Assembly: GCA_963674945.2 (NCBI GenBank)
Contig: CAXXWQ010000003.1
Span: forward strand, 1-64,000
Direction of reading: 5' to 3'
Origin: an uncultured Desulfosarcina sp.
GTDB lineage: Bacteria; Desulfobacterota; Desulfobacteria; Desulfobacterales; Desulfosarcinaceae
Length of the DNA stretch: 64,000 nt
Positions 14,613 through 40,584 of this stretch are shown in pieces. How positions within the stretch are numbered: the stretch's first letter is position 1; every line of letters begins with the position of its first letter. The position numbers and the translations under genes were made by a program. The notes under the pieces were generated by a model, which saw only the letters and a list, made by a program, of their open reading frames with translations, was not told the DNA's origin and did not search any database.

Positions 14613-14768
14613 GGGACCTTCGCTGACCACAACGGCACCAGGAATGGGAGCTATCGGATATCTGTCTGTAAAAAGCTTTTCCAGGCCCAGTGTGTCCGAA
14701 CGGCAATAGGATAGAAAATCATTTTTCCATAGTCTGCCGATGGGCCTAAAAAGGGAAAAGCTTTTTAT
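14613..14768 (+). ncRNA. Candidate structured sRNA/leader carrying the CUUYGCUGACC...GGnAmCAGRAA hairpin (copy 1)
   Basis: Motif at 14618-14644, then a long hairpin AAAAGCTTTTCC-AGGCCCA...TGGGCCT...GGAAAAGCTTTT; no convincing ORF downstream. Confidence 0.45.
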
Positions 14769-15114
14769 CAAAATCTCTTTTATTGAATCGTTCTTTAGAA
14801 GTTACAATCAAACAATTTTGTAAAAAAAGCAAATGACCGGCACCTTTAGAACAATCCTGATCCGCCATCTTCTCGTATCCCCAACAATGTTTCTGTTTGG
14901 AATTTCCGCTCCGTTTCAGGCCGTTACATATAAGGATGACATGGGCTTCACGATACACTTAGATGAACTCGGTGATACGCTTTCGGACGGAACAGGTGTC
15001 GGGGCGACCCAAACTCAACAGTTGATACGTGGATTGGTCGCGGGAAAAAGTGAGTGATAAAATATAAAAGCAGAGCCGCCCCGGACCCTGCTTTTATGAA
15101 AATCATAAATGATA

Positions 15115-15789
15115 CTATTTCACGAATCTCTTTCTGACACCAGCCATAGCCAACCCACCTGAAATAAAAAGCCATACTGCACCGGGAATAGGGACCGCAG
15201 TGTAAGTAAAATTGTCCATTAAGAAGTAGGTGCCTCCCTGGGAACCTGCTGACGGCAAAAACTCAAGTGTATCGACATCATCAATGTTTACATCTACCCA
15301 GGTCAAAGGTCCGCCGATGAGGTTGAATGTTTCCGTTGCCACCAGACTACCACCCGAATAACCATTGATCGTTAAACTGGAAGCACCATAAAAAACTGTA
15401 TCGTCATTTTTCGTCCAAGGTGCAAAATATGCCCCTTCAAAATTAAACGGAGAGCTGGACGTAAAAAGTACAGAGGCTCCCAAGCTATCGTACTCATTGA
15501 TTAGTGCATTAGCCATAGAGGGGAACTCAAGAGTATTGCCATATGCAGACTGAGTGTACGACTCATTGGTAATAACACCCCAGAAATCGTTCCCTGAACC
15601 AGACCAGGAGAACCCACCATAGTCAGTAGCAAGGCTATTGATATCATCGGCTTCACTACCAGCTGGTGTGTATGAAGGAGAAAGGTCATCGAAAGTTAAT
15701 ACAACCGATGCATTCGCCACCCCCGGCAGGTGAATAACTGCCGCCACAACCAATAACAACATCGCCATTAACCATTTTCTTGGTTTCAT
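15115..15789 (-). CDS. PEP-CTERM-like (VPIPG-CTERM) exosortase-sorted surface protein
   Basis: Signal peptide; C-terminal AVPIPGAVWLFISG + TM + RKR. Confidence 0.88.
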   Translation of the reverse strand: MKPRKWLMAMLLLVVAAVIHLPGVANASVVLTFDDLSPSYTPAGSEADDINSLATDYGGFSWSGSGNDFWGVITNESYTQSAYGNTLEFPSMANALINEYDSLGASVLFTSSSPFNFEGAYFAPWTKNDDTVFYGASSLTINGYSGGSLVATETFNLIGGPLTWVDVNIDDVDTLEFLPSAGSQGGTYFLMDNFTYTAVPIPGAVWLFISGGLAMAGVRKRFVK

Positions 15790-15835
15790 TCATTCACCTC
15801 CCTTCAAAGTATTTTTCTACCGGCATGAATAGGAT

Positions 15836-15914
15836 AAAAAAAGCCCATTCTTCGAACCGATAGTTCCAAGATTGGGCTTTCTGTTTCCCGTGGGGCTGGG
15901 GTCAGCAAAGTACC
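15836..15914 (-). promoter_or_regulatory. 5' leader with the conserved RNA hairpin (copy 2) overlapping an intrinsic terminator
   Basis: Minus strand: CTTTGCTGACCC...GGGAAACAGAAAG, whose 3' strand alternatively pairs as AAAGCCCA...TGGGCTTTTTTT. Confidence 0.55.
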
Positions 15915-15964
15915 CTTTTACAAATGATAATGATCAAATAGCCTGTTCCATTTGAAATTGTCAA

Positions 15965-15980
15965 ATTAGAATTCGGTTAG
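15965..15980 (-). promoter_or_regulatory. Pho-box-like repeat
   Basis: Minus strand CTAAC-cgaatt-CTAAT-TTGAC. Confidence 0.55.
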
Positions 15981-16002
15981 ACTACACCACAAAATGACAA
16001 CA

Positions 16003-16152
16003 CTACTGCAGTTGATGATACATATGCCGAAATTTCCAATCATCCGTAAAGTCGATACCGGCGTTATCACATTGTCTGCAATCGAACAGAAAATTGCTCC
16101 TGGCGGCATCTTCCAGACAATCTTCATAAAACGGACACCAGATGTTTTTCAT
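16003..16152 (-). CDS. Small Cys-rich hypothetical protein (49 aa)
   Basis: MKNIWCPFYEDCLEDAARSNFLFDCRQC; start at ATG 16152 is inferred. Confidence 0.5.
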   Translation of the reverse strand: MKNIWCPFYEDCLEDAARSNFLFDCRQCDNAGIDFTDDWKFRHMYHQLQ

Positions 16153-16590
16153 TAAGTCTTCTTGTTGAGTCTTGCCATCACCTTTGTAGAAAATGGGTAA
16201 CCGAGTCATTTCGCGCCTCCAACTTCTTCCTTCGGGTGTGAATGAGTCAACTGAGTCCTGTGAAAAGTGAAAGTCATGTTTTGCTGCTTCAATGTCAAAA
16301 TTCCCCATCGAAGACAAGATAGATTTTTGTTAGGAGATCGACATCGGTTGCAACCGTCAGATATCGCAAAATAAAAATTTTTTTCATTTTATCACAGATT
16401 GTTAGGCTAATAACGACTCCATTTTTGAAATAACAACCTATCGCAATTGCGTCTTCTCATTTGCAAACACAGTTCCCCTTGATTTGATCATTATTCCCAT
16501 GCGTCCAACAAACGGCAGTGCCCTGATGGTCCTGCAACCTTTTATTTGAAGATCCGACTTCCGAAATGCCGTGCGAGTCCGTTTTCGGAC

Positions 16591-16606
16591 ATAACATAAT
16601 TCTAAT
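16591..16606 (+). promoter_or_regulatory. Pho-box-like repeat upstream of alkaline phosphatase
   Basis: ATAAC-ataatt-CTAAT-TTGAC. Confidence 0.6.
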
Positions 16607-16700
16607 TTGACTTTATTCTGTCGATCATTGTAGGCACGACGCAGGAATCTGCAGTTCACATGGATAACCCGAAATCCCAATACAAGACGAGCTATTCAGA

Positions 16701-16780
16701 GCACCTTGCTGACCCGTGATACCGGGAACCAGAAGACTCGGAGGAAAATGACATTTTGTTTTCCTTGCCGGTCTTTCCGG
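16701..16780 (+). promoter_or_regulatory. Alkaline phosphatase leader with the conserved RNA hairpin (copy 3)
   Basis: CTTGCTGACCCG-tgatac-CGGGAACCAGAAG at 16705-16735, followed by an alternative AAGAC...GTCTT hairpin. Confidence 0.5.
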
Positions 16781-16925
16781 CACGAAACAATCAGGCCTTA
16801 CGCAACGCACTCTTCAGGAAAATACGAAAATCAAGGAGACAAACATTTGGCTCGACGGTATCAGGATGACGCATTCAACATTTTCGTTCCTAAACAATTA
16901 ATCAAAGAATCATAAGGAGAAAAAA

Positions 16926-18449
16926 ATGCGCGTAGTAAAAATCGTAAAAAGAGCAAGGGTCGCACTCATCGGAACGCTCGTCTGCGCCCTTTGTGCAAGT
17001 GTCGCTTTCGCCGGTGCAAGGACGAAGAAAAACACCCATTGCGGCAACTCCCTCAAGTACGTGTTCTACTTCATCGGTGACGGCATGGCCAGCGTTCAGA
17101 TTCATGCAACCGAAGTCTACCTGGCCCAGCAGGTGGAAGACGATGCCGTTGCCGGCAGCGAAAAAGCCCAGCTTCTGGCCATGAGCCAGTTTCCGGTGCA
17201 GGGAATGCAGACCACCTTCGCCAATAACCGCATGATCACCGGTTCGGCCGCCGCCGGTACGGCCCTGGCCTGCGGTATGAAAACCAACATCAACGTAATC
17301 TCCATGGACCCAGGCACCACTATGAATTATAATTCCCTGGCCGAGAAGGCTAAGGAAAAGGGCATGAAGGTCGGTATCGTTACCTCCGTGACCATCAACC
17401 ACGCCACCCCGGCCGTGTTCTACTCTCACACCGCCACCAGAAAAAATTACTCGGATATCGCTTCACAGTTGGCAAACTCAAACTTCGATTATTTCGGCGG
17501 CGGTTACTGGAACAATAGCGGCGAAGACGGTGCAGGCATGGCCGAAGAAACTGCCACAGGCAACGGTTTCGTTATTACTCACAACCTTGCGGATCTTCAA
17601 GCCCAGGCCAACGGCGCCCGCGTCATCGCTTTCGACAGCTCACAAGACGCCGGCGGCCACACGGGTGCTCTTTGGTATGATCTGGACCGCGGCATGGGTC
17701 AGATGTCCCTGGCCGATTTCACCGCAGAAGGCATCCGCCTGCTGAACAACGACAATGGTTTTTTCATGATGGTCGAGGGCGGCAAGATCGACTGGGCCTG
17801 CCACGCCAACGATGCCAAGGCCGCCATCATGGACACCATCGCCTTCGATAACGCCATCCAGGAAGCCATCGCCTTCATGGCAGACCATCCCGACGAAACC
17901 CTGATCGTCGTGACCGGCGACCACGAATGCGGCGGAATGACCATCGGTTACACCAGCACCGGGTATGACACCCATTACGAAATCATCGCCAACCAGACAA
18001 TGTCCTTCGAGAAGTTCAACGCAGACGTTCTCGCCGCTTACAAAACCACCCATGATCCCGCCCCGGCCGACATCGATGCCGATATGTGGAACATCATCCT
18101 GACCAATTTCGGTCTGGACGGCAGCGGTCTGACCACCGGCACCAGCGATGACCTGAACGCCTACGAGCGAAAGCAGCTTGAAACCGCCTTCGACGCCACC
18201 ATGACCTCTTCCGGCAACAGCACCGAGGAAGACTGGGCGCTGTATGACTACTATGAGCCGCTGACCATCACCCTGACCAGCGTACTGAACGAACGCGCCG
18301 GTCTCTCCTGGACCTCCTGCTATCACACCGGCGTTCCGGTTCCGGTTCTGGCCACAGGCAAGTATTCGGAACTCTTCGCCGGTTTCTATGACAACACCGA
18401 TATTGCCAAGAAAATCGCACAGGCCATGGGCGTGAATCTGGGCAACTAA
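16926..18449 (+). CDS. phoA: Alkaline phosphatase (PhoA family), secreted
   Basis: FIGDGM, ITGSAAAGTALACG, HATPA, VEGGKIDWACHAND, TGDHE, HT motifs; signal peptide. Confidence 0.93.
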   Translation: MRVVKIVKRARVALIGTLVCALCASVAFAGARTKKNTHCGNSLKYVFYFIGDGMASVQIHATEVYLAQQVEDDAVAGSEKAQLLAMSQFPVQGMQTTFANNRMITGSAAAGTALACGMKTNINVISMDPGTTMNYNSLAEKAKEKGMKVGIVTSVTINHATPAVFYSHTATRKNYSDIASQLANSNFDYFGGGYWNNSGEDGAGMAEETATGNGFVITHNLADLQAQANGARVIAFDSSQDAGGHTGALWYDLDRGMGQMSLADFTAEGIRLLNNDNGFFMMVEGGKIDWACHANDAKAAIMDTIAFDNAIQEAIAFMADHPDETLIVVTGDHECGGMTIGYTSTGYDTHYEIIANQTMSFEKFNADVLAAYKTTHDPAPADIDADMWNIILTNFGLDGSGLTTGTSDDLNAYERKQLETAFDATMTSSGNSTEEDWALYDYYEPLTITLTSVLNERAGLSWTSCYHTGVPVPVLATGKYSELFAGFYDNTDIAKKIAQAMGVNLGN

Positions 18450-18483
18450 GTTTATACCGAACCAGTAGCTGTCCGACAAATGA

Positions 18484-18529
18484 GAACAGGTCCGGGCGTT
18501 GTATTTGGCCCGGGCCTGTTCCTTCTTTT
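18484..18529 (+). terminator. Hairpin/terminator after alkaline phosphatase
   Basis: GAACAGGTCCGGGC...GCCCGGGCCTGTTC followed by a T-rich tail. Confidence 0.6.
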
Positions 18530-18542
18530 ATGAGGTGTATCC

Positions 18543-19703
18543 TTGGTCGATTTCCGAAAGGCCTTTCGGGCCGATAAGCGCGACATCTATCTCACCGCCG
18601 CCTTTTTGCTGATATGCACTGGGCTGGTTTTCCTGCCAACCGGATTTGAGCACATGCATCCGGAGAAATCGCATTTCGCACGCGGGCAGATCCTGGAAGT
18701 GGACAATTCTGATATCAAAACACATATGATTGTCAAATCGGGCGTTCAGGAACTGAAAATCGAAATCCTGAACGGGCCGTACAAAGGCCGGGTGGTGACA
18801 TCCCAAAACCCGCTCAGGGCCAAGCTGGAAATCGATGAAATCTATAAAGTAGGCCACACGGTGCTTCTCGAGTTCGGCCTCAAGGACGGAACGATCAAGC
18901 CCGTCTATTGCCGGGGCATTTACCGGGTCCGCACGGCGTTCCTTCTTTTGTGCATGTTTTCGGCCCTTCTCATGCTCGTGGGAGGCTGGACGGGATTGAA
19001 GGCCCTGCTTTCCTTTGCCTTCGCCGCCCTGATGTTGTGGAAGGTGATGGTTCCCTGCTTTCTGAAAGGCTATGATCCGGTTTGGGTGGCCCTCGGCGTG
19101 GTGGCGGCGTTGACGGCGGCGATCAGCTTCATGGTGGGCGGATTGAACCGCAAGGGACTCGTTACCTTCATGGGCGCCTTTCTCGGCCTCCTGCTGACTT
19201 GCCTGCTGGCCGTTATTTTTACGAATAACTTTCAGGTAAACGGCGCCGTGAGACCCTTTGCGGAAACATTGCTCTATTCCGGCTTTTACAATCTGAATCT
19301 AACCAAAATCTTCATCGCCGGCATATTCGTCGCCTGTTCGGGCGCGGTCATGGATCTGGCGATGGACATCGCCGCATCCATGTACGAGGTCATCGAAAAA
19401 CACCCGGACATTTCCATGATAGAACACATCGAGTCCGGCATGGCCGTGGGTCGTTCCGTGATCGGTACCATGACGACGACGCTATTACTGGCCTATTCGG
19501 GCAGTTGCACGACCATGATGATGCTTTTCATGGCCCAGGGGGTTCCCCTGAGGAGCATTCTCAACCTCAACTTTGTCGCCGCCGAGGTACTCAATACCCT
19601 CGTTGGAAGTTTCGGATTGATTACCGTGGCACCATTTACCGCCCTGGTGGGCGGACTTGTCTATGGAAAGCCATTGCGAAAAAGACCGGGCATGAGGTCT
19701 TAA
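18543..19703 (+). CDS. YibE/F family membrane protein
   Basis: GAVMDLAMDIAAS, GRSVIGTMTTTLLLAYSG, AAEVLNTLVGSFGL. Confidence 0.88.
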   Translation: MVDFRKAFRADKRDIYLTAAFLLICTGLVFLPTGFEHMHPEKSHFARGQILEVDNSDIKTHMIVKSGVQELKIEILNGPYKGRVVTSQNPLRAKLEIDEIYKVGHTVLLEFGLKDGTIKPVYCRGIYRVRTAFLLLCMFSALLMLVGGWTGLKALLSFAFAALMLWKVMVPCFLKGYDPVWVALGVVAALTAAISFMVGGLNRKGLVTFMGAFLGLLLTCLLAVIFTNNFQVNGAVRPFAETLLYSGFYNLNLTKIFIAGIFVACSGAVMDLAMDIAASMYEVIEKHPDISMIEHIESGMAVGRSVIGTMTTTLLLAYSGSCTTMMMLFMAQGVPLRSILNLNFVAAEVLNTLVGSFGLITVAPFTALVGGLVYGKPLRKRPGMRS

Positions 19704-19726
19704 CAAAAAATTAACCTCGACCTAGT
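19700..19726 (+). promoter_or_regulatory. Pho-box-like repeat
   Basis: TTAAC(19700) TTAAC(19711) CTAGT(19722). Confidence 0.55.
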
Positions 19727-19995
19727 ACTTTTATGACAATGATCGGGCAATTACGGATAATCCTGATTATCGACAATTGCCATCATCGCTTGTCTGCTGA
19801 TTCATAGGGCAGCATCGCCCGCAACGGCTCCGATCCGAAAGAGGAGTTATGCTGTGAGCGTTCTGTCCCGCAACCGGTTCCGCCGTTTTGCGGCTGTAAG
19901 GCTTCTTGTGGGCCCTTGCAGACGGACCCGGTTGATAACAAATGTTCGCGATACCTTTTACAACAGACTAACAACAAAGAGGAAAGGCAATTGAA

Positions 19996-20721
19996 ATGAG
20001 AAGGTTTACAATTTTAGGAGCACTGACCACCATGATGTGCCTGTTGACGGCAATGGGGCCAACACAGGCAATGGCCACCTATGCGGATGTGTGGTCGTAT
20101 ATAAATTGGGAATCGGTTTCCATCGAGTTCACCGGAAGCGGTTCCTACACAAGCACGATCGAAACCTACGCCTATGCGGAATCGGCAGACAGCGCATATG
20201 TGGAGGACAACGACTTCGGATCTAGTACCGATAGCATGGTCGAATCCGTCGCCGAATTCCATGCCACTGCTTTTTGGGGATGGGGACTGTATGACCGGGA
20301 AGATCTCTACGCGGAGGCATATATAGAGGACAACGCCGGGCTCGCATATGGCGATGCGGGGTATTACGGCACGTACCAGGCGACCACGGCCGGCACACTG
20401 ACCATCTCGTTTGATTACAGGCTGGCATACGATGTTCAAGCCGATGCCAATGAGGAAACCACCGCCTAGGCCTGGAGCGAAATCAATCTCGGCGGTCTCA
20501 CAGATTCGAACCTCATCGACACCGAAGCATTCAACGGCATGGACTTTTTCTCCGAAACACCACTTGATACCTTGCGTTTGTCCATGGATCTTGTTGATGG
20601 TCAAACCGTAGATTTTTCCATGATCACCGGCGTACAAGCCTGCGCCGTTCCCCTTCCCGGGGCCGTGTGGCTGCTTGTTTCCGGTCTGGCAGGTGTAATC
20701 GGTTTTCGCCGTCGTTCATAA
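19996..20721 (+). pseudogene. VPLPG-CTERM surface protein interrupted by one in-frame TAG (20467-20469)
   Basis: ORFs 19996-20469 and 20539-20721 are in the same frame; read-through gives signal peptide...EETTA*AWSEINL...AVPLPGAVWLLVSGL...RRRS. Confidence 0.8.
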
Positions 20722-20750
20722 AAAAGAGATTACCGCCTTCCCCGTTCCAC

Positions 20751-20788
20751 AAAAAAGGGCAACGCTTTGCAAGGCGTTGCCCTTTTTT
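20751..20788. terminator. Bidirectional intrinsic terminator
   Basis: AAAAAAGGGCAACGC-tttgcaag-GCGTTGCCCTTTTTT. Confidence 0.8.
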
Positions 20789-21040
20789 CGGCGGTTCTTC
20801 CGTAGCTATGTTCACCCTTCGATCGGAGCAGCCTCATTTGAAAAGATAGCCCACCCAGCCATTGTCATGCATTGGTGCAGATGACTGCCCCCCGATAACT
20901 GTTATGGATGCGCCTGCCATCGTGGCTTTGTCCCTCACGGAACATGATGGCAGGCACATCCATTTTGGAGAGGAACAAGATGATGTTGGAAATCTAAAAA
21001 ATGATGATTGGTAAAAGATTAAAATATTGTCAGTTTATCG

Positions 21041-22594
21041 TTAGCAAAAAGTCGCGCTGACTTCTTCCGGAGCATCAATTGTAATTTCCTCGCCGGATAC
21101 CAATTCAATCAGACATTGGGTAACCAGACGATCAATTTTTCCTTCTCGTGCCTCTTCAATCAGGATGTTAATGGCCTTTTCCTTTGGCATCGCCTTCCGA
21201 TACGGACGGTCGCTTGCGAGCGCGTCATATATATCCGCAACCGCCATTACACGGGTGACCATACTTATCTCATTCTCTTTCAATCCGTCCGGGTACCCGC
21301 TTCCATCCAGTTTTTCATGGTGATGGCGGACAATATCCAGCGCCTGACCGATATTTTTTTTCAGCGGCAGGCATATTTTGTATCCGATTTCCGGATGGGC
21401 CATCATCACTTCCCATTCGTCATCATCCAGTGGCCCGGGTTTATTGAGAATCTTTCCCGGAACACCAAGCTTGCCGATATCGTGAAGCACGCCTCCCAGC
21501 CGGAGCGCCTCAAGTTCATGATTCGTCAGTTCCAATTTTTTTCCAATGGAGATGGCAAGGGCCGATACACGGTCAACATGTCCTTGTGTATAGCTGTCCT
21601 TGGCTTCAACGGTCTTGGCCATTGAAAATAGGACATTTTCCATACTGGTAAGACTCTTGTTTAATCTTCGTATCCGGATAAGTGATTTAATTCGGGCCAA
21701 CAACTCGGTTTTGTTCGGCGGTTTTGTGATAAAATCGTCGGCACCCGCTTCGATTCCCCTCACTTTTGTATCCATATCATCCAGTGCGGTCAGCAAGACC
21801 ACTGGTATCATCCGGTTTTCCTCGTTTGCCTTGATTGTCCTGCAAACCTCAAATCCGTCCAGCCCCGGCATCATGATATCCAATAAAATGATATCAATTT
21901 CGACCTTTTCCAGTATGTACAGGGCATCTTGGCCGTTTCCGGCAGTGTGAATCGCGTAGTCCAAAGGTTTTAATAGCCCCTCCATGAGCTTCAGATTCAA
22001 CGGCTCATCATCCACGATCAAAACGCAGGGACGATGGTCGCAGCAGGATGGACTGGAATCGGGGCGAAAACTGCAAACCTTGTTTTTGCCCATGACCTTT
22101 GCCTGCTTGAGGGCAGATTTTGTCTCTTCGAATAATTTTTCCGGACCTTTCGTCATGGTAATCGTTGATGTGGAAAGGCCGATACTGACCGTTACCTGTC
22201 CATCACTTTCCGCCTCGATCGTTGCCCTTACTTTCTCGGCGGCTTTTTGGGCGCCTTCGGCATCCGTACAGGTATACAAAACGGCGAACTGGTCTCCATT
22301 GTATCGCGATACGATATCTGAACAGCGGGTATTTTCCTTAATGATAGCAGCAATTTCTTTTAGCGTCCTGTCTCCTTTGATGGCGCCGTACCTATGATTG
22401 AACAAACCAAAAGAATCCACATCGACAACGGCCAGAGAAAAAGCTTTTCCGTACCGCTTAAACCGTTGTAACTCCTGCTCGACATATGCCAGAAAAAAGC
22501 CGTGATTGAATAATCCGGTAAGACTGTCTCTGAATGGAGATTCCGTGTTCTCCTGATAGATGGATCCAATTTTCTCAATCGTATATATTTGCAT
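21041..22594 (-). CDS. Degenerate GGDEF + receiver + HD-GYP c-di-GMP phosphodiesterase
   Basis: DSLTGLFN...YNGDQF; REC domain; HDIGK and HHEKLDGSGYP; likely start MQIYT at 22594. Confidence 0.88.
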   Translation of the reverse strand: MQIYTIEKIGSIYQENTESPFRDSLTGLFNHGFFLAYVEQELQRFKRYGKAFSLAVVDVDSFGLFNHRYGAIKGDRTLKEIAAIIKENTRCSDIVSRYNGDQFAVLYTCTDAEGAQKAAEKVRATIEAESDGQVTVSIGLSTSTITMTKGPEKLFEETKSALKQAKVMGKNKVCSFRPDSSPSCCDHRPCVLIVDDEPLNLKLMEGLLKPLDYAIHTAGNGQDALYILEKVEIDIILLDIMMPGLDGFEVCRTIKANEENRMIPVVLLTALDDMDTKVRGIEAGADDFITKPPNKTELLARIKSLIRIRRLNKSLTSMENVLFSMAKTVEAKDSYTQGHVDRVSALAISIGKKLELTNHELEALRLGGVLHDIGKLGVPGKILNKPGPLDDDEWEVMMAHPEIGYKICLPLKKNIGQALDIVRHHHEKLDGSGYPDGLKENEISMVTRVMAVADIYDALASDRPYRKAMPKEKAINILIEEAREGKIDRLVTQCLIELVSGEEITIDAPEEVSATFC

Positions 22595-22610
22595 TGTGCC
22601 TGTTCTTTCT

Positions 22611-24422: not shown

Positions 24423-24477
24423 CGCCTTTCATCATTTTCCCGTTTTCACCTCGTATCGCATGCGGCTTCACTTTCCA

Positions 24478-31927: not shown

Positions 31928-32125
31928 TTATCGAGTCAATTTCTCATTTCGGGCCAACTTCTCAGGCTTGCATAAAGTACCTTTCAACCGGGAAGACCGC
32001 AGGCATTTTTCGCATACGAATTTCGATTTGGCCAGAAGATCGGCCAGATCATCCCAATTTTTTTTCGTTTCGTCCTTATCCCATTTACACAGGGATTTCT
32101 TTTTCAGTTTTTTGTCCATGTGCAT
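31928..32125 (-). CDS. Small Lys/Cys-rich hypothetical protein
   Basis: LCKWDK...KFVCEKCLRSS....LCKP; RBS AAGGAG upstream. Confidence 0.65.
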   Translation of the reverse strand: MHMDKKLKKKSLCKWDKDETKKNWDDLADLLAKSKFVCEKCLRSSRLKGTLCKPEKLARNEKLTR

Positions 32126-32205
32126 CTCCTTTCATGAATCAGATGTTTACATGGTAACCACTGACACATGGACAATCAAGAAGTGGTATTGCGATCAACG
32201 ACCGG

Positions 32206-32697
32206 CTATTTCTTCTTCGGATAATCGAAATCGCTTGAAGTCAGGTTGCCCCCATCGATCAAACGCCACGTGTCAGTCATAAACTCGAGTCGGACCACAC
32301 CGGCAGTAGGAATGTTCTCAATGGGTTGCGGCAGAAACCGATTCGCCAGTCGTGTCAATCCAGGATTGTGGCCCACCATCATCACCGTTTCCAATCGATC
32401 GTCAAGTTGATAGATAATTTCAAGGATTCCATCGGCCGAAGCATGGTAAAGGCCGGGCTCTGTTCGGATAACAGAGGTTTTTACGCCCAATGCCCGGGCC
32501 ATGGCGGCCGCCGTATCCAGGGCCCGGCGGGCATTGCTGCTGACGATGGTATCCATTGCCACACCAGTTTTGGACAGACGCCGGCCCATTTCCGGGGCTG
32601 CCTTTTTCCCCCGCTTGTTCAATGGTCGTTCATGATCCGCAAGAAGAGAATCGTTCCAGCTTGATTTGGCATGGCGAACGACAAAGAGCGTTTTCAT
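32206..32697 (-). CDS. sixA: SixA-type histidine phosphatase
   Basis: RHAKS, RPLNKRG, SSNARRA, VGHNPG, PTAG; ATGA overlap with the ppk1 stop. Confidence 0.88.
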
Positions 32698-34874
32698 TTT
32701 TTCTTTAGCGATGCCTTCTTTTTCTTCTTCGTGCGGCTATTCACGGTCAGCGCGCTCCCCCTTCCGGAAAGGCTCGGATTGGTCATGAAAAATTGATGGG
32801 CGTTGAAGGGTTGGCCTGTTACCTCGCAACGCCGATAAGAGCCGTCGGACTGCAGCATCCAACTCTGTTCGTTGTCCTTCAGGTTCGCCACCATGATCTG
32901 ATCCAATACCTGTCGGTGAACCGTCGGGTTCTCGATCCGGACCATCGCTTCGATCCGCCGGTCGATGTTTCGCGGCATCCAATCGGCGGATGAGATGTAC
33001 ACATCGGCATGTGTCGATGGCAGTTCATGACCATTTCCGAAGCAGGCAATCCGGGAGTGTTCTAAAAAACGACCGACAATGGATTTCACTTCGATGTTTT
33101 CGGACAGGCCGGGAACGCCGGGCCTGAGACCGCAGATGCCCCGGGCGACGATTTTGATATTCACACCGGCCTGGGATGCCCGATACAACGAATCGATGAT
33201 TTTTGCGTCGATCAGGGAATTGACCTTCACATAGATCCCTGCCGGCCGTCCGGCCAATGCATGATCGATCTCGTCTTTTATCTTGGACAAAATGAAGTTT
33301 CTCATGTGAAGGGGGGATATGATCACCTTTTTCAGTTTCATGGGCTTGGCATAGCCGGTCATGTAATTGAATATCTGTAAAACGTCGTCGCAAATCTCCG
33401 GATCGCAGGTAAAGAAGGAAAGATCGGTGTAGACCTTGGCCGTTACCGGGTGGTAATTTCCCGTACCCACATGGGCATAGGATTTCAGTTTCTTCCCCTC
33501 TCTTCTCACCACCAGGGAAAGTTTGGCGTGGGTCTTGTATTCGATAAACCCGAAAACCACCTGCGCACCGCTTCTCTCCAACTTTCTGGCGATGCCGATA
33601 TTGGCCTCCTCGTCGAACCGGGCTTTGAGTTCCACCATGGCGGTTACGCTCTTGCCCGCCTCGGCTGCCTCCACCAGGGCCTGGACGATGGGTGAATCTT
33701 CACTGGTCCGGTACAGGGTCTGGCGGATGGCCACCACATTTTTATCCTTGCTGGCCTGGTGAAGAAACTGAACCACCACATCGAAACTCTCGTATGGATG
33801 GTGGACAAGGATATCCTTTGCCTTGATGGCTGCCAGGCAATCACCGCCATAGTCGCGAATGCGTTCGGGAAATCGCGCCTCATAGGGTGGAAAGAGCAGG
33901 TCGGGTCGATCGTCGACAATCATTTCACCGATGTCGGAAAGACCGATCATGCCTTTAAAGCTGAACACATCATGCTCGGAAACATCCAGTTGGGCCTGAA
34001 TAAAATGGAGCAGGTCATCGGAAATGGCATCATCCACCGTCAGGCGGACGACACTGCCCCGCCGCCGTCGCTTCAGCGCGCTCTCGAATGTTCTGACCAG
34101 ATCTTCTGCCTCTTCGTCGATCTCCATCTCGCTGTCTCGAATGACCCTGAAAATACCATTGGACAACAGCGCAAATCCAGGAAACAAGAGATCGAGAAAC
34201 ATCAATACCACCTTTTCCAAGGCGATGAATCGGATGGGTTTTCCGGGTAACCGGATGAACCGGTCCAACTGGGCCGGCAAAATCACCAGGGCAACCAGGT
34301 TTTCTTCTTCGGATTCGCTTTCCAGTTCTAAGACCAGACCGAAACCCAGATTGGGGATAAAGGGAAACGGGTGGGCCGGATCCACCGCAATGGGACTCAA
34401 AATGGGAAAAATATTCTGGCGAAATACTTTCGCCAGCCATTTTCTTTCCTCGCTGGAAATCTCATCCGGGCTGATCAGATGGATACCGGCGTCCTTCATC
34501 TCGCAGATGAGATCTTCGAGGCAATTGTGCTGGTCGGCAGCCAATTCGGCCACTTTCGTGGATATGGCGCCCAGTTGCTGGGCCGGCGTCAGCTTATCCG
34601 GGTTGAGTCCCCGGACACGGGAGGCCACCTGTTCTTTGAGACCGGCCACCCGAACCATATAAAATTCGTCCAAATTATCGGCCGAGATGGAAAGAAAACG
34701 AAGACGCTCCAGTATCGGATGGGACGGGTTCATGGCCTCTTCATAAACGCGCCGGTTGAACTCCAACCAGGACAACTCCCGATTGATAAATCGCCCGGGC
34801 TTGTCTTCGGCAACGTCGTTGATCATCTCCATTGCCTGCCTGGATTGTTCCGACTGTACAGATGTGTCGCTCAT
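32694..34874 (-). CDS. ppk1: Polyphosphate kinase 1
   Basis: [60 protein letters not shown] 34874 preferred over GTG 34919. Confidence 0.96.
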
Positions 34875-34930
34875 CTTGTGCACTCTACCATCGTAATTTT
34901 CAATCCATTTTTTTAACACGCAGTCACCTG

Positions 34931-34968
34931 ATTGTATTACTACGGGTCAAATGTTAGATTTTTGTTAG
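34931..34968 (-). promoter_or_regulatory. ppk1 promoter: Pho-box-like repeat plus -10 element
   Basis: Minus strand CTAACA-aaaat-CTAACA (34968-34952) and TACAAT (34936-34931). Confidence 0.65.
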
Positions 34969-35053
34969 CACAAAAACATTTACAATCCGGAATTGTAATA
35001 GCGATGATGGTAAAGTGCTTTATCGTTCGGGACAATTGTGGTACGAGCGATTC

Positions 35054-35520
35054 ATGGAAACAATAATGTTACATCAACGGAAAAGACGCCGACAGTGGAT
35101 CGTTTTGGTATCCCCATTTCTCATCACATGGCCCTGGATAATTACGGCGGTGATTGCCGGCCGCCACCTACCCTGTGATGAGACCTACTATTATCGTAAT
35201 GTCACCGGCGAAAACGTCTCGAAAATCAAATGGGAGCTAAAAAAGCAGATGGTTTCACCCTCAACTACCAAACGCCGACGTCGCAATATGTGACCACTAC
35301 CGACGCCGATTTTGACACCCGATGCTGGCGGGTCGCCGATGAAGGCAAAGACATATTCCTGCGGGCCGAACGCGTAGCGGAGGACATCGTTATTAAAGGC
35401 TGACATCGAGGAAATACCATAGACAAATCTTTGGCCATCGACCCGAATCCATGGTATCAGGCCACGTCACTCTCCTTGCGGAAATTCATCGCATCCGAAG
35501 ATTCCGATAAACCTCAGAAA
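35054..35520 (+). pseudogene. Degraded gene for a probably exported protein
   Basis: Hydrophobic N-terminus, then frame change(s) and an in-frame TGA (...EDIVIKG*HRGNTIDKSLAIDPNPWYQATSLSLRKF). Confidence 0.4.
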
Positions 35521-35525
35521 ACGGA

Positions 35526-35648
35526 TCAAGCCGCCTTTTTCAAAGCCTTTTTCAGTTTCTTGATTTTTCCTTGTTGCTTGGCAACGATGGCCTTTCTGGT
35601 TTTCATCTCTTTTTTAATGGATTTTGCTTTCTTCGATACTTTTGCCAT
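35526..35648 (-). CDS. 40-aa Lys/Ala-rich basic microprotein (below the ORF-track cutoff)
   Basis: MAKVSKKAKSIKKEMKTRKAIVAKQQGKIKKLKKALKKAA*, with AGGAG RBS. Confidence 0.65.
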   Translation of the reverse strand: MAKVSKKAKSIKKEMKTRKAIVAKQQGKIKKLKKALKKAA

Positions 35649-35675
35649 TTTTTTTCTCCTTTCACGGCTTCTTGG

Positions 35676-35861
35676 TCAAACTTCCTTTTTTTTCTCGTGC
35701 ATTTTTAAAAACTGCCCGATGAACTTGCGTATTTCCCGGGCAGCACTGGTGTCCAACTCCTCACAAAGTTTGACGAACCGATCCCTTTCTTCGCCACTGA
35801 TGCGAATTAAAAGCTGACTGTCCTTTTTATTTTTTTTCTTGGATGATTTTTTCTTTGCCAT
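35676..35861 (-). CDS. Small ribbon-helix-helix-like protein with a Lys-rich N-terminus
   Basis: KDSQLLIRISGEERDRFVKLCEELDTSAAREIRKFI. Confidence 0.7.
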   Translation of the reverse strand: MAKKKSSKKKNKKDSQLLIRISGEERDRFVKLCEELDTSAAREIRKFIGQFLKMHEKKKEV

Positions 35862-36095
35862 TTGTCACCGGCAGGCAAGCAGCCTCAATTTCAGTTGATC
35901 AGTACGTTTCGAGACAAAATACGATATACTTTGTATATGCTTTGTATATACATTTCGATTTATATTGTCAAGCCGTATATAAAAAAATGCCGGAAAAATT
36001 GGATGAATTCAGCCAACACAACGTATTGATAAATTTCTATCAATACCAATGGTATTCAAGATTACAGCGCCTCTCTCTTAAAGGAAAATGGTTTT

Positions 36096-36124
36096 CCTAA
36101 CATAAACCTAACACTATCCTAACA
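36096..36124 (+). promoter_or_regulatory. Perfect triple Pho-box-like repeat
   Basis: CCTAACA at 36096, 36107 and 36118. Confidence 0.7.
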
Positions 36125-36384
36125 TATAGAACATAGTTTACGCGTCAATAACAATTGATTCGACAAATAGGATCCCCCCTCTTTTGCAGGGTGAAACACC
36201 TTCTGTAATAAAACGACAAACGACAATAGGAAACGCCAAATGATCTCAAACAATTGCAGTATTGAAGTAAGGGTCAAATAAACCCCATCTTCACATAGCC
36301 CAGATATTATGACATCATAGGCTTGGCAATGAAAATGTGTATGGGAGACGATTGTGAACCGGCCGGTAGAAAGTAAGAGAAGAA

Positions 36385-37980
36385 TCAATAGCGAAGGATC
36401 GCCAGCGTCTGTTTGTCGATATTTTTTGGCAAAAGCGCCAGATGGTCCTCCCGCGTCCTGGCCAGCGGAAGTTTGGCGAACAGGTATCGAAGATAGGCAT
36501 AGGGTTCCAGCCCATTGGCTTTGGCCGTTTCGATCAAACCGAAGAAGGTGGCGCTGGCTTCCGCACCCCGGGGCGCGCCGGAAAACAGCCAGTTCTTGCG
36601 ACCCAACACGAATGGCCGGATGACATTTTCAGCCACATTGTTGTCGGGCTTCAGAAATCCGGCATTGATATAGACAACCAGTTTGTCCCATTGGTTTAGG
36701 CAATATTGGATCGCTTTGCCGAGAAGGCTTTTCGGAGGAGCTTGCCAATGGTAGGTGTCCAGCCAGGTTTTAAATTGTTTCAGAATCGGCTTGGCCTTTT
36801 CCTGTCGCAGGTCACGGATCTGTTCATACGACAAATCCTTGTCTCGCGCATACCGTTCTATGCCATACAATGCGCCAATGTAATCCAGCGCCTCGTCGGC
36901 AAGCCCCTTGGCTGCTTTTTGTTTGCCGCGCGCCTTGCGCCCTTTGTTCACCTCGACAAATTTACGTCGGGCATGGGTCAGGCAACCTAAATGGATGATC
37001 CCTTGCTTTTGGGACAGCTGATCATAGCCGCTGTAGCCGTCGCTTTGAACATAGCCCGAATAGTCTTCTATCATATCTTGCACTACCTTCCCACTACGGG
37101 TGGGATGATACTGGTAAAGCACCACAGGGGCATCCAACGGGCCGCCACAAAACACCCACATATACGATTTTGTTGTATTGCTGCGGCCCGGTTCCTGAAG
37201 CACCTGAAACGGACTTTCATCGATATTGATCACAGGACCGCTTCGAATCTCCTGATGCATCAATTCGACGATCGGCTGGCAGCAACCGGCGGCCTGAATC
37301 ATCCAATTGGCCATGGTTGACCGTGAGATGTCAACGCCCAGACGGTCAAATATCTTTTGTTGGCGATGCAGGGGAAGCGCATCGGCGAATTTTGAGACAG
37401 CGATGTGGGCCAGCAGTCCCTCAGTGGCGTTGCTCTTGGGAATCAGTTGTTCTGGCGGCGGAGCGATCCTAACGGTGGGGCCGTCATCCTCGACGCCTTC
37501 GCAGGCCTTGCAGGCGTATTTGGGGCGGATGTGACGGATCACCTGGATTTTTGCCGGGATATAATCGAGCTTCTCACAGGTCTCTTCGCCGATACGGCTC
37601 AGTTCAACTCCGCAAGCACACCGTTTCTCGGCCTCAGGGATATCGTGCAGGACCTCGACGCGGGGCAGATCCTCAGGCAACGGTTTGCGGCCACGCTTTT
37701 TGCGGGTGTGCTCCGGGACGGTGATGTCGTCATCGGCAAGGACGGGCTCTGCGGTTTCGTCGGGTTTGAACAACTGGAGTTGGTTGGGATTGACGGCCGG
37801 CAAAACTTCACTTTTGCGACCGAACAGCTCGTTCTTCAGCAGACGTACCATTTCTTGCAGATGGTCGATTTGCTGCTGCTGAGAAGAGATAATCTCCTTA
37901 AGCGATTGGGCGTCATCGGGCAGGTTGTTCGATTCCGAAAGCATGCCTGATACATAGCATAACCAATTGAATTTGTACAC
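36385..37980 (-). CDS. tnpC: IS66 transposase TnpC
   Basis: LFGRKSE, zinc finger, SKFADALPLHRQ, DES, CLTHARRKF, DNNVAEN.IRP...GRKNWLF; start may be slightly downstream. Confidence 0.95.
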   Translation of the reverse strand: MYKFNWLCYVSGMLSESNNLPDDAQSLKEIISSQQQQIDHLQEMVRLLKNELFGRKSEVLPAVNPNQLQLFKPDETAEPVLADDDITVPEHTRKKRGRKPLPEDLPRVEVLHDIPEAEKRCACGVELSRIGEETCEKLDYIPAKIQVIRHIRPKYACKACEGVEDDGPTVRIAPPPEQLIPKSNATEGLLAHIAVSKFADALPLHRQQKIFDRLGVDISRSTMANWMIQAAGCCQPIVELMHQEIRSGPVINIDESPFQVLQEPGRSNTTKSYMWVFCGGPLDAPVVLYQYHPTRSGKVVQDMIEDYSGYVQSDGYSGYDQLSQKQGIIHLGCLTHARRKFVEVNKGRKARGKQKAAKGLADEALDYIGALYGIERYARDKDLSYEQIRDLRQEKAKPILKQFKTWLDTYHWQAPPKSLLGKAIQYCLNQWDKLVVYINAGFLKPDNNVAENVIRPFVLGRKNWLFSGAPRGAEASATFFGLIETAKANGLEPYAYLRYLFAKLPLARTREDHLALLPKNIDKQTLAILRY

Positions 37981-38007
37981 ACTTATTTTACTTCCAGGTG
38001 GATGTTC

Positions 38008-38355
38008 TCAGCTTGCATAACGGTAGTTTAAACGCACATGAGCATTCGTATAATCCAGTCCGGCGAGAAGCCATTCCAGTTCTTTCGCACTAAGGGAAAC
38101 GACTTCTTTTGTGGTTGTTGGCCAGTGGAAACGGTGCTTCTCCAGCCGTTTGAGCCAGAGAGCAAATCCATTTTTATCCCAGTATAAAATTTTTATCATG
38201 TTCCGACGCCGATTGCAGAAGACGAACAGGTCCCCTTCGAAGGGATTCAAATCCATGGCCTGTTCCACCAAAACCGAAAGCCCGTTGATCGATTTGCGCA
38301 TATCGGTATTACCCACGGCCAGAAAGACCCTTTTGGGATTGGTGGGCAACATCAT
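38008..38355 (-). CDS. tnpB: IS66 accessory protein TnpB
   Basis: TDMRKSINGL, LFVFCNRRR..IKILYWD.NGF.LWLKRLE. Confidence 0.95.
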   Translation of the reverse strand: MMLPTNPKRVFLAVGNTDMRKSINGLSVLVEQAMDLNPFEGDLFVFCNRRRNMIKILYWDKNGFALWLKRLEKHRFHWPTTTKEVVSLSAKELEWLLAGLDYTNAHVRLNYRYAS

Positions 38356-38681
38356 AATGTAGCCACCATTGCAACAAGCTTGTTGATTTCTATCGATCCG
38401 TTTTGATCATCGACTTCGATGGTAAATCCGTTGGGGGTATGAATACGAACGGATGGATGTTTCCTCGTCGCTGATCCGTTGAGCGCAACCGGCAAAAAAG
38501 TAACTCGGGTTTTATCAACGGGCATGATGCGCCGTTTCCAATCGTAAAACCGATGGAGAATGAGATCGTTTTTTTTACAATAGGCCCTTTGGCTTAGGCT
38601 GCTGATCTTCCATTTCTCGATATGATTTTCCCAAAATTTTCGCCTTTGCTTGGAATCGAATGAATCATAGTCTTCAGGCAT
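38352..38681 (-). CDS. tnpA: IS66 accessory protein TnpA
   Basis: W..HI..WK.S.LSQRAYC....L....FY.WKRR; ATGA overlap with tnpB. Confidence 0.9.
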   Translation of the reverse strand: MPEDYDSFDSKQRRKFWENHIEKWKISSLSQRAYCKKNDLILHRFYDWKRRIMPVDKTRVTFLPVALNGSATRKHPSVRIHTPNGFTIEVDDQNGSIEINKLVAMVATL

Positions 38682-39088
38682 GATATCTTCTCCTTTCTTT
38701 GGGGAAACACATTGCCATGCCTGAACAATTTTGTGAAGATGGGGTTAATAAACCGCTTACGTATTGAAGAGTTCGTCAAGGCCGTGCAGGGAAAAGATAC
38801 ATATGAGGTGATCAACCTGGCTGTTCAGGAGGCCACCGAAGTCGACCGCATTGTGATGAAAAAACGAAAGAAGTCCAAAATTGACAATTTTCAGAATTAT
38901 TCACGCCAATTGAAGCAACTCATCAGCTACCATCGATATATTATCAAACCCCGCCGAGGGATGAAAACAACTTACAACCTCTATATGCAATATTGGGGAA
39001 CCGCGGATCTGTCGACGGATCATCACCAATGTAAACCGTCAATGGATACAACGAAACAAGTAGCCTAAAAAATAAAATAAGCACTTCA

Positions 39089-39396
39089 ATGGGAAAATCG
39101 GGCACGATGACGGAAAAATTAGTAAGATGCCCGAAATGTGGATCTGATGCCTACTATCATTACGGGAAAACCGTAAACGGAAAGGAAAGACGACTCTGTC
39201 TCATCTGCAATGGCAATATATCATCGATCGGACCTGGGTTGAAAACCCGGATAGGCCCAATTGCCCAGCGTGCAACGAACCGATGCATGTGTATCAGCGC
39301 CAACTGTCATACACCCGATATAGATGTCGGAACTATCAAAAATGCAAGACACACCATAAGGTACTCTTGTGGAAAAACAAAGTTGCGGGGACTTGA
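39089..39396 (+). pseudogene. Double zinc-ribbon protein (InsA-like N-terminus) with a 1-nt frameshift near 39212
   Basis: CPKCGSDAYYHYGK..NGKERRLCLICN, continuing in another frame as QYIIDRTWVENPDRPNCPACNEPMHVY...RYRCRNYQKCKT. Confidence 0.65.
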
Positions 39397-39399
39397 AAA

Positions 39400-39636
39400 A
39401 TGAACATATCATCGCATATTTATGTCGAACAAAAGAAAAAGAATAAAACGGACCTCGAACGATGTGCTTTCGGCATCGTTGAACGCTACCAGAAAGGTGC
39501 AATCGTAGAATTGCGGGATTACGGCTGGCAAATGACGTGGAAATATCTGCTCAAGGAACTTCGATCCTGCTCCCCCGGTTTTATGGACATCGAATATGGC
39601 ATCGCCTTGCATCTGGCTTTCACCGAATCCAGATGA
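39400..39636 (+). CDS. Hypothetical protein
   Basis: 78-aa ORF directly following the zinc-ribbon gene. Confidence 0.55.
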   Translation: MNISSHIYVEQKKKNKTDLERCAFGIVERYQKGAIVELRDYGWQMTWKYLLKELRSCSPGFMDIEYGIALHLAFTESR

Positions 39637-39642
39637 ACTTTA

Positions 39643-40047
39643 TTAAATTTCATTTTTCTCCGATTTTTTCTGCAGCCAGTCTTTGGCAAGGTCCACATCT
39701 CTGAAAACTTGATATTCATCTGGTAGGTTATTCATTTTCATTATGGCGGCAAAAAAATTCAGCAATCCGATGTTAATGGTTTTAGAACCGACCAGGGCCA
39801 CCTTTCGAACCTTTCCATCTGTTGAGACTGCCCCAATACTGGAAGAAATATCGTTCATATCGGCTATGGATATATCAATTTTAGAAGCCTTAGAAAAATC
39901 CCATAAGGAGTTATCCGGTTTCTTACCCGGCAAGTATTTGTTTGCCTGAACCAAAATATCCTCTGCGTTTAATGCTCCGATCACTTTGAAAATTGTATAC
40001 TTTTCCTGCTTTTTGACTGAAATCATAACCCGCTGACTCTCCATCAA
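39643..40047 (-). CDS. Hypothetical protein, STAS/SpoIIAA-like
   Basis: LWDFSKA, KVALVG, YQVFRDVDLAKDWL pattern. Confidence 0.6.
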   Translation of the reverse strand: MMESQRVMISVKKQEKYTIFKVIGALNAEDILVQANKYLPGKKPDNSLWDFSKASKIDISIADMNDISSSIGAVSTDGKVRKVALVGSKTINIGLLNFFAAIMKMNNLPDEYQVFRDVDLAKDWLQKKSEKNEI

Positions 40048-40268
40048 TTCGAATAAGCGACGTTTGTGGTATCGGTTGCAACACGATATTCTATCACATC
40101 TCGATATTTATGAAGGTATTGCTGTGCACATTGCTCACAATACTTTCTGGGGACGCCACGTCCGGTAAAATAAAAACGGTACCAGTGCCGCTTTTGACAA
40201 ATGGGGCAGATACATTCGGTTGGTTTGCTACGGCTGAGAACGGTTGCCATCTTATTTGATCTCCTCAA
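40044..40268 (-). CDS. Small zinc-ribbon-like protein (paralogue of 14246-14506)
   Basis: ECICPICQKRH...FTGRGVPRKYCEQC; probable start MATV at 40250. Confidence 0.65.
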   Translation of the reverse strand: MRRSNKMATVLSRSKPTECICPICQKRHWYRFYFTGRGVPRKYCEQCAQQYLHKYRDVIEYRVATDTTNVAYSN

Positions 40269-40307
40269 AGTATGATTTTATTTTTAGTTCATGAGTACTC
40301 TTTAATT

Positions 40308-40323
40308 ATTAGTTTTTGGTTAG
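40308..40323 (-). promoter_or_regulatory. Pho-box-like repeat
   Basis: Minus strand CTAAC-caaaaa-CTAAT. Confidence 0.55.
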
Positions 40324-40466
40324 GAATATGACACAAAGATAAAAGCAATCATCTTTATTCTATTGAAATAATAAATGATAATTTATGTGTTATTTTTTCT
40401 CAAGAGAAAAACGTGTCTTAGAACTAAAGCTTATCGATTGTGTGTCGATAGAGAAGTTAACGATTC

Positions 40467-40584
40467 GGTACTTCGCTGACCCATACACCTCCTGATGTGG
40501 GGACCAGGAAGCCGGTACGAATATTCAAGTTTCACTCCTTTTTAAAAAAGCCAGAATCCATGGTAATTGGGTTCTGGTTTTTTT
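40467..40584 (+). ncRNA. Candidate ~120-nt sRNA with the conserved hairpin (copy 4) and a terminator
   Basis: CTTCGCTGACCC...GGGGACCAGGAAG at 40471-40511; terminator AAAAAAGCCAGAATCCA...TGGGTTCTGGTTTTTTT at 40544-40584. Confidence 0.5.

Follow-up and report, generated by a model that had tools for sequence, protein, structure and literature searches.

Hairpin Copies in the Window and the Genome

The window analyzed here, a stretch of 64,000 nucleotides (nt) from an uncultured Desulfosarcina sp. (positions 1-64000 of contig CAXXWQ010000003.1, or C3, in the 7.08-Mb genome GCA_963674945.2, or G000), carries four copies of a short RNA hairpin among genes that include ppk, ppx, CHAD, CYTH and a phoA-like gene, together with the start of an exopolysaccharide cluster. 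An earlier inspection of this DNA (the original prediction) had named four hairpin sites with a shared motif; all four are present, and a loosened form of the pattern recovered exactly these four in the window and none in 300 shuffles. Three of them are strong copies, whereas the 14.6-kb copy is decayed, with its outer stem absent, a C-U mismatch and an E-value of 0.24 (model R2, whole genome). The hairpins and the features around them are:

14546..14572, forward strand: Pho-box-like triple half-site repeat upstream of the decayed copy
14611..14650 (core 14618-14644), forward strand: decayed hairpin copy
14670..14766, forward strand: long inverted repeat, U-rich at its end, downstream of the decayed copy and with no same-strand gene behind it
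15115..15789, reverse strand: predicted gated gene for an exported protein of 224 amino acids (aa) whose tail, judged from its sequence, is of the VPIPG-CTERM (PEP-CTERM) type; Pfam gave no match
15832..15882, reverse strand: intrinsic terminator, about -24.6 kcal/mol, then a U-run; the last ~10 nt of the hairpin double as its 5' arm, making the two mutually exclusive
15873..15916, reverse strand: full hairpin, class A (proposed antiterminator), GGG-UA-CUUU-G-CUG-A-CCC / loop / GGG-AAA-CAG-AAAG-CCC; E 3.5e-12
15965..15980, reverse strand: Pho-box-like direct repeat (11 bp), located 64 nt upstream of the hairpin and adjoining a TTGACA hexamer
16591..16617, forward strand: Pho-box-like repeats with one mismatch apiece, ahead of the phoA-like leader
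16698..16740, forward strand: full hairpin in the alkaline phosphatase leader; E 3.7e-10
16730..16777, forward strand: alternative hairpin using the 3' arm of the preceding one
16926..18449, forward strand: predicted gated gene, alkaline phosphatase (PF00245)
40465..40515, forward strand: full hairpin, stand-alone, class-B-like; E 2.3e-11
40543..40585, forward strand: terminator 28 nt past the hairpin, without overlap, shared with a convergent lipase gene

From 5' to 3' the fold reads GGG, a 2-nt bulge, YYYY, a bulged G, CYG, A, CCn, a free loop, nGG, nAM, CRG, RRRR and CCC, with a 1x3 internal loop and an apical loop that is free in length and sequence. The inner stems had been described correctly, but the outer GGG/CCC stem behind the 2-nt bulge had been overlooked; it becomes CGG/CCG at 40.5 kb and GAG/CUC at 16.7 kb, and the latter copy misses the strict consensus because its stem is CUU/AAG. 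The loop of the 40.5-kb hairpin contains CACCUCCU, and UCACUCCUUUUU comes after it. Two copies had been said to lack a downstream open reading frame (ORF). No same-strand ORF of at least 90 aa follows closely after the 14.6-kb copy, and the 40.5-kb copy is followed by a terminator and the convergent lipase gene, with the qualification that a 92-aa frame overlaps the lipase gene on the other strand.

Five further copies outside the window bring the total in G000 to nine, eight of which match model R2 at E-values of 1e-8 to 1e-13:

C3:110812-110855: one hairpin copy
C3:116033-116192: three tandem hairpin copies
C3:1888793-1888831: one hairpin copy

Elsewhere in the window, an IS66 element and an InsA-like fragment (36385-39403) lie immediately left of the 40.5-kb copy, and phage baseplate and DNA methylase genes occupy 0.4-8 kb. 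Small cysteine-rich ORFs at 14246-14506 (forward; CxCPxC...CxxC) and 16003-16209 (reverse; CPxxxxC...CxxC; no Pfam match) stop short of the Pho-like repeats that belong to the 14.6- and 15.9-kb copies.

A Conserved RNA Family

To assess how widely the hairpin occurs, we searched with patterns and with covariance models. A structure descriptor (first stem with a TT core, loop of at most 45 nt) matched the genome six times and a 7-Mb Markov control not at all, and a plain pattern gave five genome matches against one in the control. A covariance model built from eight genome copies (R1) found homologues across the family, and an exact pattern occurred at 110 loci among GTDB species genomes, 80 of which were listed and scanned with the covariance model; those 80 come mostly from Geobacteraceae, Syntrophobacteraceae, Smithella, Desulfatiglandaceae, other delta-type bins and Nitrospirota. 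Pattern loci often number several per genome, with a tail of probable chance matches in other phyla.

The claim of compensatory change, made from four copies, holds in an alignment of 136 distinct homologues from Desulfobacterota, Nitrospirota and metagenomes (alignment A7), in which 12 of 13 pairs show two-sided change and 95.4% of cells are paired. Swaps between UA and CG occur in three stems, and the loop-closing pair takes five pair types; none of 500 shuffles reached the observed pairing, and slid partners pair at 30-58%. The alignment was fitted to the model and its sequences include kin, so that this covariation is strong but is a measure other than the R-scape test. Among loci selected by protein (alignment A6), two-sided change is seen at 7 of 13 pairs.

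Conservation among unpaired positions is limited to three or four, namely the bulged G (99%), the A of nAM (99%) and the opposing nucleotide (A in 85%, G in 9%), while the apical loop is not conserved and nothing points to tertiary pairing. Above the lower bulge sits a C-G pair, canonical in 125 of the 136 rows; if this pair is counted into the lower loop, the hairpin would have two similar loops, each three pairs from the bulged G. The strand was judged from context because G-U cells barely exceed A-C cells (43 vs 33).

As had been suspected, no known class was recognized: no Rfam 15 family lies over any of the hairpins in either gathering-score or E-value mode, the best match near one copy being a plastid intron model at chance level (E 0.33). 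The hairpin is a real conserved RNA family that is absent from Rfam 15. The C-loop motif is a 3x1 loop with a conserved first C on its long strand; we rejected this label, as the first nAM position is free here (A 21%, C 25%, G 32%, U 20%) and only the 3x1 shape is common to both.

Overlap with Intrinsic Terminators

At 15.9 kb, the proposed attenuator is supported by the overlap of hairpin and terminator, the hairpin alone being predicted at -12.0 kcal/mol. The same arrangement, in which the 3' end of the hairpin is the 5' arm of a terminator, recurs in 83 of 132 contexts, compared with 21 of 396 upstream control positions, and a second detector found it in 86 of 134, against 4 upstream. The first of these counts omits 17 low-scoring or probably chance loci (L042, L044-46, L049-52, L078, L087, L088, L091, L093, L100, L126, L130 and L150) and the duplicates L111 and L149, and includes the 14.6-kb copy, which was added by hand. 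Sigma-70 and terminator scans did no better than shuffles and missed the 15.9-kb terminator.

In the contexts counted as overlapping, the conserved fold is mutually exclusive with an expression platform of the kind found in riboswitches. The predicted medians are -12.4 kcal/mol for the hairpin and -26.8 kcal/mol for the terminator, the latter being stabler in 81 of 83 cases, and the leader is therefore predicted to be OFF unless the hairpin is held. The hairpin is very probably a cis-acting antiterminator of some kind.

The alternative hairpin proposed for the phoA copy is present but has no U-tract. It hides a GGAGG and the start codon (ATG) of a 55-codon frame (16748-16915) reaching as far as the phoA ribosome site, and it may have a regulatory role of its own. 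In locus L055, where an orthologous hairpin copy precedes the phosphatase gene, the GGAGG-ATG is not kept.

Pho-Type Repeats and Downstream Genes

Pho-box-like repeats had been reported near three window copies. They do lie 54-107 nt upstream of three hairpins, with the restriction that those at 16.7 kb are found only if one mismatch is allowed, and no such 11-bp repeat precedes the 40.5-kb copy. Across the family, an 11-bp direct repeat stands upstream of 55 of 131 hairpins (shuffle mean 3.7, maximum 8; other spacings 0-8). A matrix built from these repeats ranked the pstS promoter first of 44 sites in G000, and the hairpin leaders have 11-bp direct repeats in common with that promoter, as members of a Pho regulon would.

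The genes behind the hairpins include ones for surface, matrix and phosphate-scavenging proteins. In 44 of 132 contexts, the ORF that comes first ends in a PEP-CTERM-like tail, 42 of these lying behind a terminator, and among 41 other downstream ORFs the matches include five alkaline phosphatases, a metallophosphoesterase, five PilZ proteins, four subtilases, two kumamolisin-type proteases, two two-partner-secretion proteins and two glycosyltransferases, as well as RCC1, FG-GAP and Fn3 proteins. Small ORFs without a Pfam match also stand behind the hairpin and terminator at L079:1024-1410 and L096:929-1399 (reverse); their starts resemble a ribbon-helix-helix.

A pattern resembling the cyclic di-GMP (c-di-GMP) riboswitch c-di-GMP-I occurs within 300-400 nt in 20 of 132 contexts, and 11 loci preselected by this pattern gave 13 Rfam matches to c-di-GMP-I-GGC, eight of them above the gathering score. 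Long-insert variants of c-di-GMP-I-GGC (165-185 nt), which score below that threshold, lie downstream of hairpin and terminator at L001:6483-6649 (reverse; C3 ~110.5-110.6 kb) and in L027, L033, L056 and L062. Between the terminator and the main gene, at some distance from the latter, a conserved GGAGGTGA/GGGGGTGA site is found at L001 ~6730-6750 (reverse) and in L025, L027, L056 and L062; it is possibly a short leader ORF or a target of the CU-rich small RNA (sRNA) copies described below.

The three tandem hairpins of G000 head a cluster of about 75 kb (C3:40.6-116.3 kb) in which 30 of 33 long ORFs lie on one strand. This cluster holds PEP-CTERM genes, a PstS-like protein, TonB/ExbBD, an exosortase, two-partner secretion with a 2638-aa ORF and exopolysaccharide genes, then a phosphonate-type transport operon. 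At its head, preceding both the triple hairpin and a stand-alone PilZ gene, are OmpR-type and VpsT/CsgD-like LuxR regulators (L001:13076-14538, reverse), the former of which could be the binder of the 11-bp repeats.

Stand-Alone Copies

The suggestion that some copies are free-standing sRNAs is supported by ten aligned loci (L002:4715-4915, reverse, L007, L008, L028, L029, L035, L038, L040, L043 and L048) with a common layout: a palindrome-like site comes first, then an extended -10-like box at ~15 nt from the hairpin, and the hairpin itself is followed by a CU-rich stretch containing CCUCCU and by a GC-rich terminator. Judging from this layout, the stand-alone copies would be sRNAs of ~110 nt, and they are without an expression platform. 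The 40.5-kb copy has the same arrangement minus the upstream palindrome, which is of the TTACC-N4-GGTAA type; the class is more widespread in the genus than the small protein described next.

A Small Basic Protein Linked to the Hairpin

A small ORF recurs in the sequences upstream of the hairpins. Its single copy in G000 lies outside the window, inside the PEP-CTERM cluster and behind a Pho-like repeat of its own:

C3:114271-114450 (L001:10272-10451), reverse strand: unannotated basic 60-aa protein

The family (45-60 aa) comprises 282 clusters at 50% identity and 1217 at 90%, and its named records, from Desulfosarcina, Desulfatitalea, Smithella and their relatives, are nearly all labeled hypothetical. 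Net charge is positive in 93% of 267 sequences. The predicted model has a helix (residues 16-31) and two strands (38-44 and 47-54) at a predicted local distance difference test (pLDDT) score of 79.6, with the conserved T36, Y38, K40, N42, R50 and K53 on the strands. Modeled as a homodimer, the protein scored 0.50, compared with 0.00 for the best control, with contact agreement between runs of at least 94% and partner pLDDT of at least 67; 20 of 30 solved homodimers attain the mark applied, as does 1 of 23 single chains. The closest predicted contacts are those of residues 35-46 with themselves in antiparallel register. The prediction supports dimerization and is silent on RNA binding.

No Pfam, NCBIfam or PHROG family matched the protein, no solved relative was found in the PDB, and viral contigs held no relative. 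Fold searches gave at best a Z of 3.1, with a root-mean-square deviation of 5.3 over 48 residues, and a Foldseek E-value of 0.5, matches too weak to exclude any relationship.

The gene and the hairpin are linked. Among the best 80 of 147 metagenome loci fetched with the protein alone (73 distinct gene ends), 57 carry a same-strand hairpin 3-365 nt past the stop codon, with an overlapping terminator in 50, and in none of the 80 does a hairpin lie upstream or on the opposite strand. The usual module consists of a Pho-like repeat (present upstream of 45 of 78 small-protein genes; controls 0-6), the small gene, the hairpin with its terminator and a PEP-CTERM gene of ~250 aa.

The two parts also co-occur across genomes. 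In 150 genomes of the phylum, strong protein matches and strong hairpins were both confined to G000 and G234, the weak matches being one partial protein (G324) and three single hairpins elsewhere (E 0.001-0.006). Among 101 relatives of G234, a set that overlaps the phylum sample, the same three genomes carry protein and hairpin, with the hairpin directly behind the gene. Within the family (65 genomes), 10 have the protein, each with two to eight hairpins, 38 have neither and 17 have hairpins only; three or more copies are found in 9 of the 10 protein-positive genomes versus 2 of the 55 protein-negative ones. Eleven of the 17 hairpin-only genomes have one copy, and many of the 17 hold stand-alone copies or weak matches or are fragmented bins.

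Some hairpins stand in other settings. In L061 and L065 (both around 1620-2075), two divergent copies lie back to back without a clear downstream gene, one of them behind a sigma-54-like GGCAC...GC promoter, and the site adjoins an integrase-like gene in G015. In G073, CRISPR-repeat-like matches below the gathering score (L034:109-433) lie ~1 kb upstream of an orphan hairpin.

Proposed Mechanism and Alternatives

The reading we favor, with a probability of roughly 0.6, is a protein-dependent antiterminator that resembles the RAT/CAT systems but is built of unrelated parts, with the small homodimer holding the hairpin closed. Under phosphate shortage, a PhoB-type regulator acting at the observed Pho-type repeats would start transcription, which by default would end prematurely at a terminator predicted to be ~14 kcal/mol stabler than the hairpin. 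The small-protein dimer, predicted to be two-fold with a common antiparallel sheet, would read one internal loop with each subunit on either side of the central bulged G, keeping the hairpin folded and the terminator blocked; that the protein binds the hairpin is suggested by linkage, charge and symmetry. In the leaders that carry it, the c-di-GMP-I riboswitch would be a further input. A Pho-like repeat also stands before the small gene itself, which would make the circuit a feed-forward loop with delayed or thresholded matrix production. More tentatively, the stand-alone RNAs may titrate the protein and so set a threshold, by analogy with the EutX sponge (PMC5821096), or may pair with ribosome sites. 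The wider proposal, in which this sensor-less homodimer would govern a biofilm-matrix regulon of Desulfobacterota and Nitrospirota as its master antiterminator, with up to eight pseudo-symmetric hairpin sites per genome, a sponge-set threshold and a three-input gate formed with the phosphate regulator and the c-di-GMP riboswitch, is speculative and rather doubtful as a whole.

Several observations weigh against the protein as antiterminator, chief among them the 17 of 65 family genomes that have hairpins at E≤1e-3 and no protein. Four of these genomes (G015, G009, G010 and G073) are close to complete, a search of them and of G080 with a wider profile gave no divergent small protein, and G073 and G015 each retain one terminator-overlapping copy. 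No hairpin lies within 500 nt in 23 of the 80 protein loci, or directly behind the small gene in G000, and an overlapping terminator is missing from about a third of all copies. The protein lacks a sensor domain, and its near-invariant glutamates (E52, E55, E56) are unusual for an RNA binder. Gene and hairpin share one cassette, so their co-occurrence may partly be co-inheritance; kin genomes are not independent, and family genomes made up part of the training set of R2. The upstream sequences had already been viewed when the Pho half-site pattern was chosen, and the strand asymmetry of the hairpin (43 G-U vs 33 A-C cells) is weak.

The original prediction had allowed for either a riboswitch or an RNA bound by protein, and we favor the protein over a ligand sensor because of the few conserved unpaired positions, the platform-less stand-alone copies and the small gene that co-occurs upstream. 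A small-ligand ON-riboswitch, with a metabolite or ion (e.g., a nucleotide signal, or a divalent cation rising under phosphate shortage) stabilizing the hairpin and the small gene a co-regulated neighbor, is unlikely, if the strongest of the alternatives. Such a switch would fit the aptamer-plus-terminator layout, the tandem arrangement with c-di-GMP-I riboswitches, the near-invariant bulged G and loop A, and the persistence of hairpins in near-complete protein-less genomes, but it would have no need for an unregulated small gene 3-100 nt upstream in unrelated families, the apical loop is not conserved, tertiary pairing is not in evidence, and a gap of 14 kcal/mol would be large for so small an aptamer. 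That persistence would also be accounted for if another, more widespread protein antiterminates, such as a second NusG paralogue (LoaP-like) or another factor, with the small protein a cofactor or bystander. We hold this to be a little less probable again: a second NusG is present in G000, and LoaP needs a leader hairpin and acts on long operons (PMC12691694), but the NusG paralogue is kept by 61 of the 65 family genomes, most of the 38 hairpin-free ones among them, and lies on another contig beside an ihf-like gene (L189:1279-1806, reverse). Moreover, the LoaP hairpin is UNCG-capped whereas the loop here is free, and G000 has no CAT domain and only a single, unlinked GAF-ANTAR protein.

A processive mode, in which the small protein rides with RNA polymerase and overrides distant terminators in the long cluster as lambda N/boxB or LoaP do, seems improbable. 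The 30 of 33 long ORFs co-oriented in a cluster headed by three tandem hairpins, the several copies without an overlapping terminator and the invariant glutamates, which could serve a protein contact, are compatible with it, but most copies overlap their own terminator and fold competition suffices. It is very improbable that the small ORF is a leader peptide whose translation controls the hairpin-terminator choice in cis: the stop codon lies at most 12 nt from the hairpin in 22 of 57 linked loci, yet distances extend to 365 nt, most hairpins have no such ORF, the sole gene in G000 adjoins no copy and the conservation of the protein is that of a folded domain. Small sheet-forming dimers can bind DNA, and the G-U versus A-C asymmetry is weak, but we give the least credence of all to a site acting in DNA, as an operator or single-stranded hairpin, given the free spacer length with paired covariation, the fixed orientation to downstream genes and the exact overlap with terminator arms.

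Should the small protein prove to be the antiterminator, the pair would be a compact orthogonal ON-switch, a regulator would be named for PEP-CTERM genes without the known sigma-54 site, and phosphate starvation and c-di-GMP would be tied to the production of matrix and exo-enzymes in sediment, aquifer and digester bacteria; if instead a ligand is sensed, the hairpin would be a new riboswitch class. The pair lends itself to direct testing, the RNA having 40 nt and the protein 60 aa.

Comparison with Known Systems

The closest parallel is with RAT elements, which are short hairpins with a free apical loop and two conserved internal loops that have 6-10 nt in common with a stabler terminator and are bound by a protein dimer, one subunit per loop (PMC5393181). 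The hairpin described here agrees with those targets of BglG, SacY and LicT in size, ~10-nt overlap and energetics, as well as in its free apical loop and two internal loops, but it differs in sequence and loop topology, including the central bulged G. The CAT domain of those proteins (PF03123) is absent from G000 (98.7% complete), while it was detected in 4 of 14 control genomes, and the candidate here is a stand-alone helix plus beta-hairpin of 45-60 aa without a PRD or sensor. The predicted targets differ as well, being genes for surface proteins, matrix and phosphate scavenging where those of BglG, SacY and LicT concern sugar uptake.

A regulon of terminator-bearing leaders accompanied by a stand-alone RNA with the binding site recalls the ANTAR/EutX system, where the stand-alone RNA (also Rli55) sequesters the antiterminator and the substrate of EutV is a dual hairpin (PMC5821096). 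Here there is one bulged hairpin with a free loop, and we ruled out ANTAR on the grounds of that single hairpin and of the sole ANTAR gene of G000, which lies unlinked at C3:455 kb. LoaP, a NusG paralogue of the dfn system, is described as requiring a small leader hairpin for antitermination of long clusters (PMC12691694), but that hairpin is UNCG-capped and set apart from terminators, and the NusG paralogue here is found in family genomes with and without the free-looped hairpin. The order of gene, terminator and targets in most small-gene loci is that of HutP, whose gene comes first, with a terminator between it and the regulated genes (PMC12591593); HutP, however, is a hexamer that binds single-stranded RNA, and searches by sequence and by fold gave no match between it and the small protein. 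For PEP-CTERM genes, the PrsR/sigma-54 upstream site is a DNA enhancer with a -24/-12 promoter, and further regulators are expected for those genes without a PrsR site (Haft et al. 2006, PMC1569441); it shares the class of target genes with the hairpin, which differs in being transcribed, covarying and placed behind Pho-type repeats.

The literature searched, including the main texts of PMC11109978, PMC8632094 and PMC5737381, gave no account of the motif or the protein, and an unnamed candidate may appear in the supplements of PMC11109978 (Geobacter and Desulfobacteraceae genomes) and PMC5737381, which lay outside that search. The protein itself may be related to DUF2292/YezD (PF10055), which is similar in size and helix-then-beta-hairpin pattern, aligns in register and supplies the nearest named clusters in a language-model search (0.76-0.79), all of these being weak leads. 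The PF10055 hidden Markov model does not match it, profile comparison was not significant, with E-values of 0.25-0.44, the best against a shallow five-sequence alignment, and PF10055 exceeds its cut-off in 1 of 121 genomes of the class; a function for DUF2292 was not found in the literature searched. Collectively, the families of RNA-binding antiterminators in the literature consulted are few (CAT, ANTAR, HutP and NusG paralogues), and the hairpin-protein pair matches none of them in sequence, domain or predicted fold. If the wider proposal of a master antiterminator holds, the pair would be a new class of RNA-binding antiterminator and may give a function to the look-alike DUF2292/YezD proteins.

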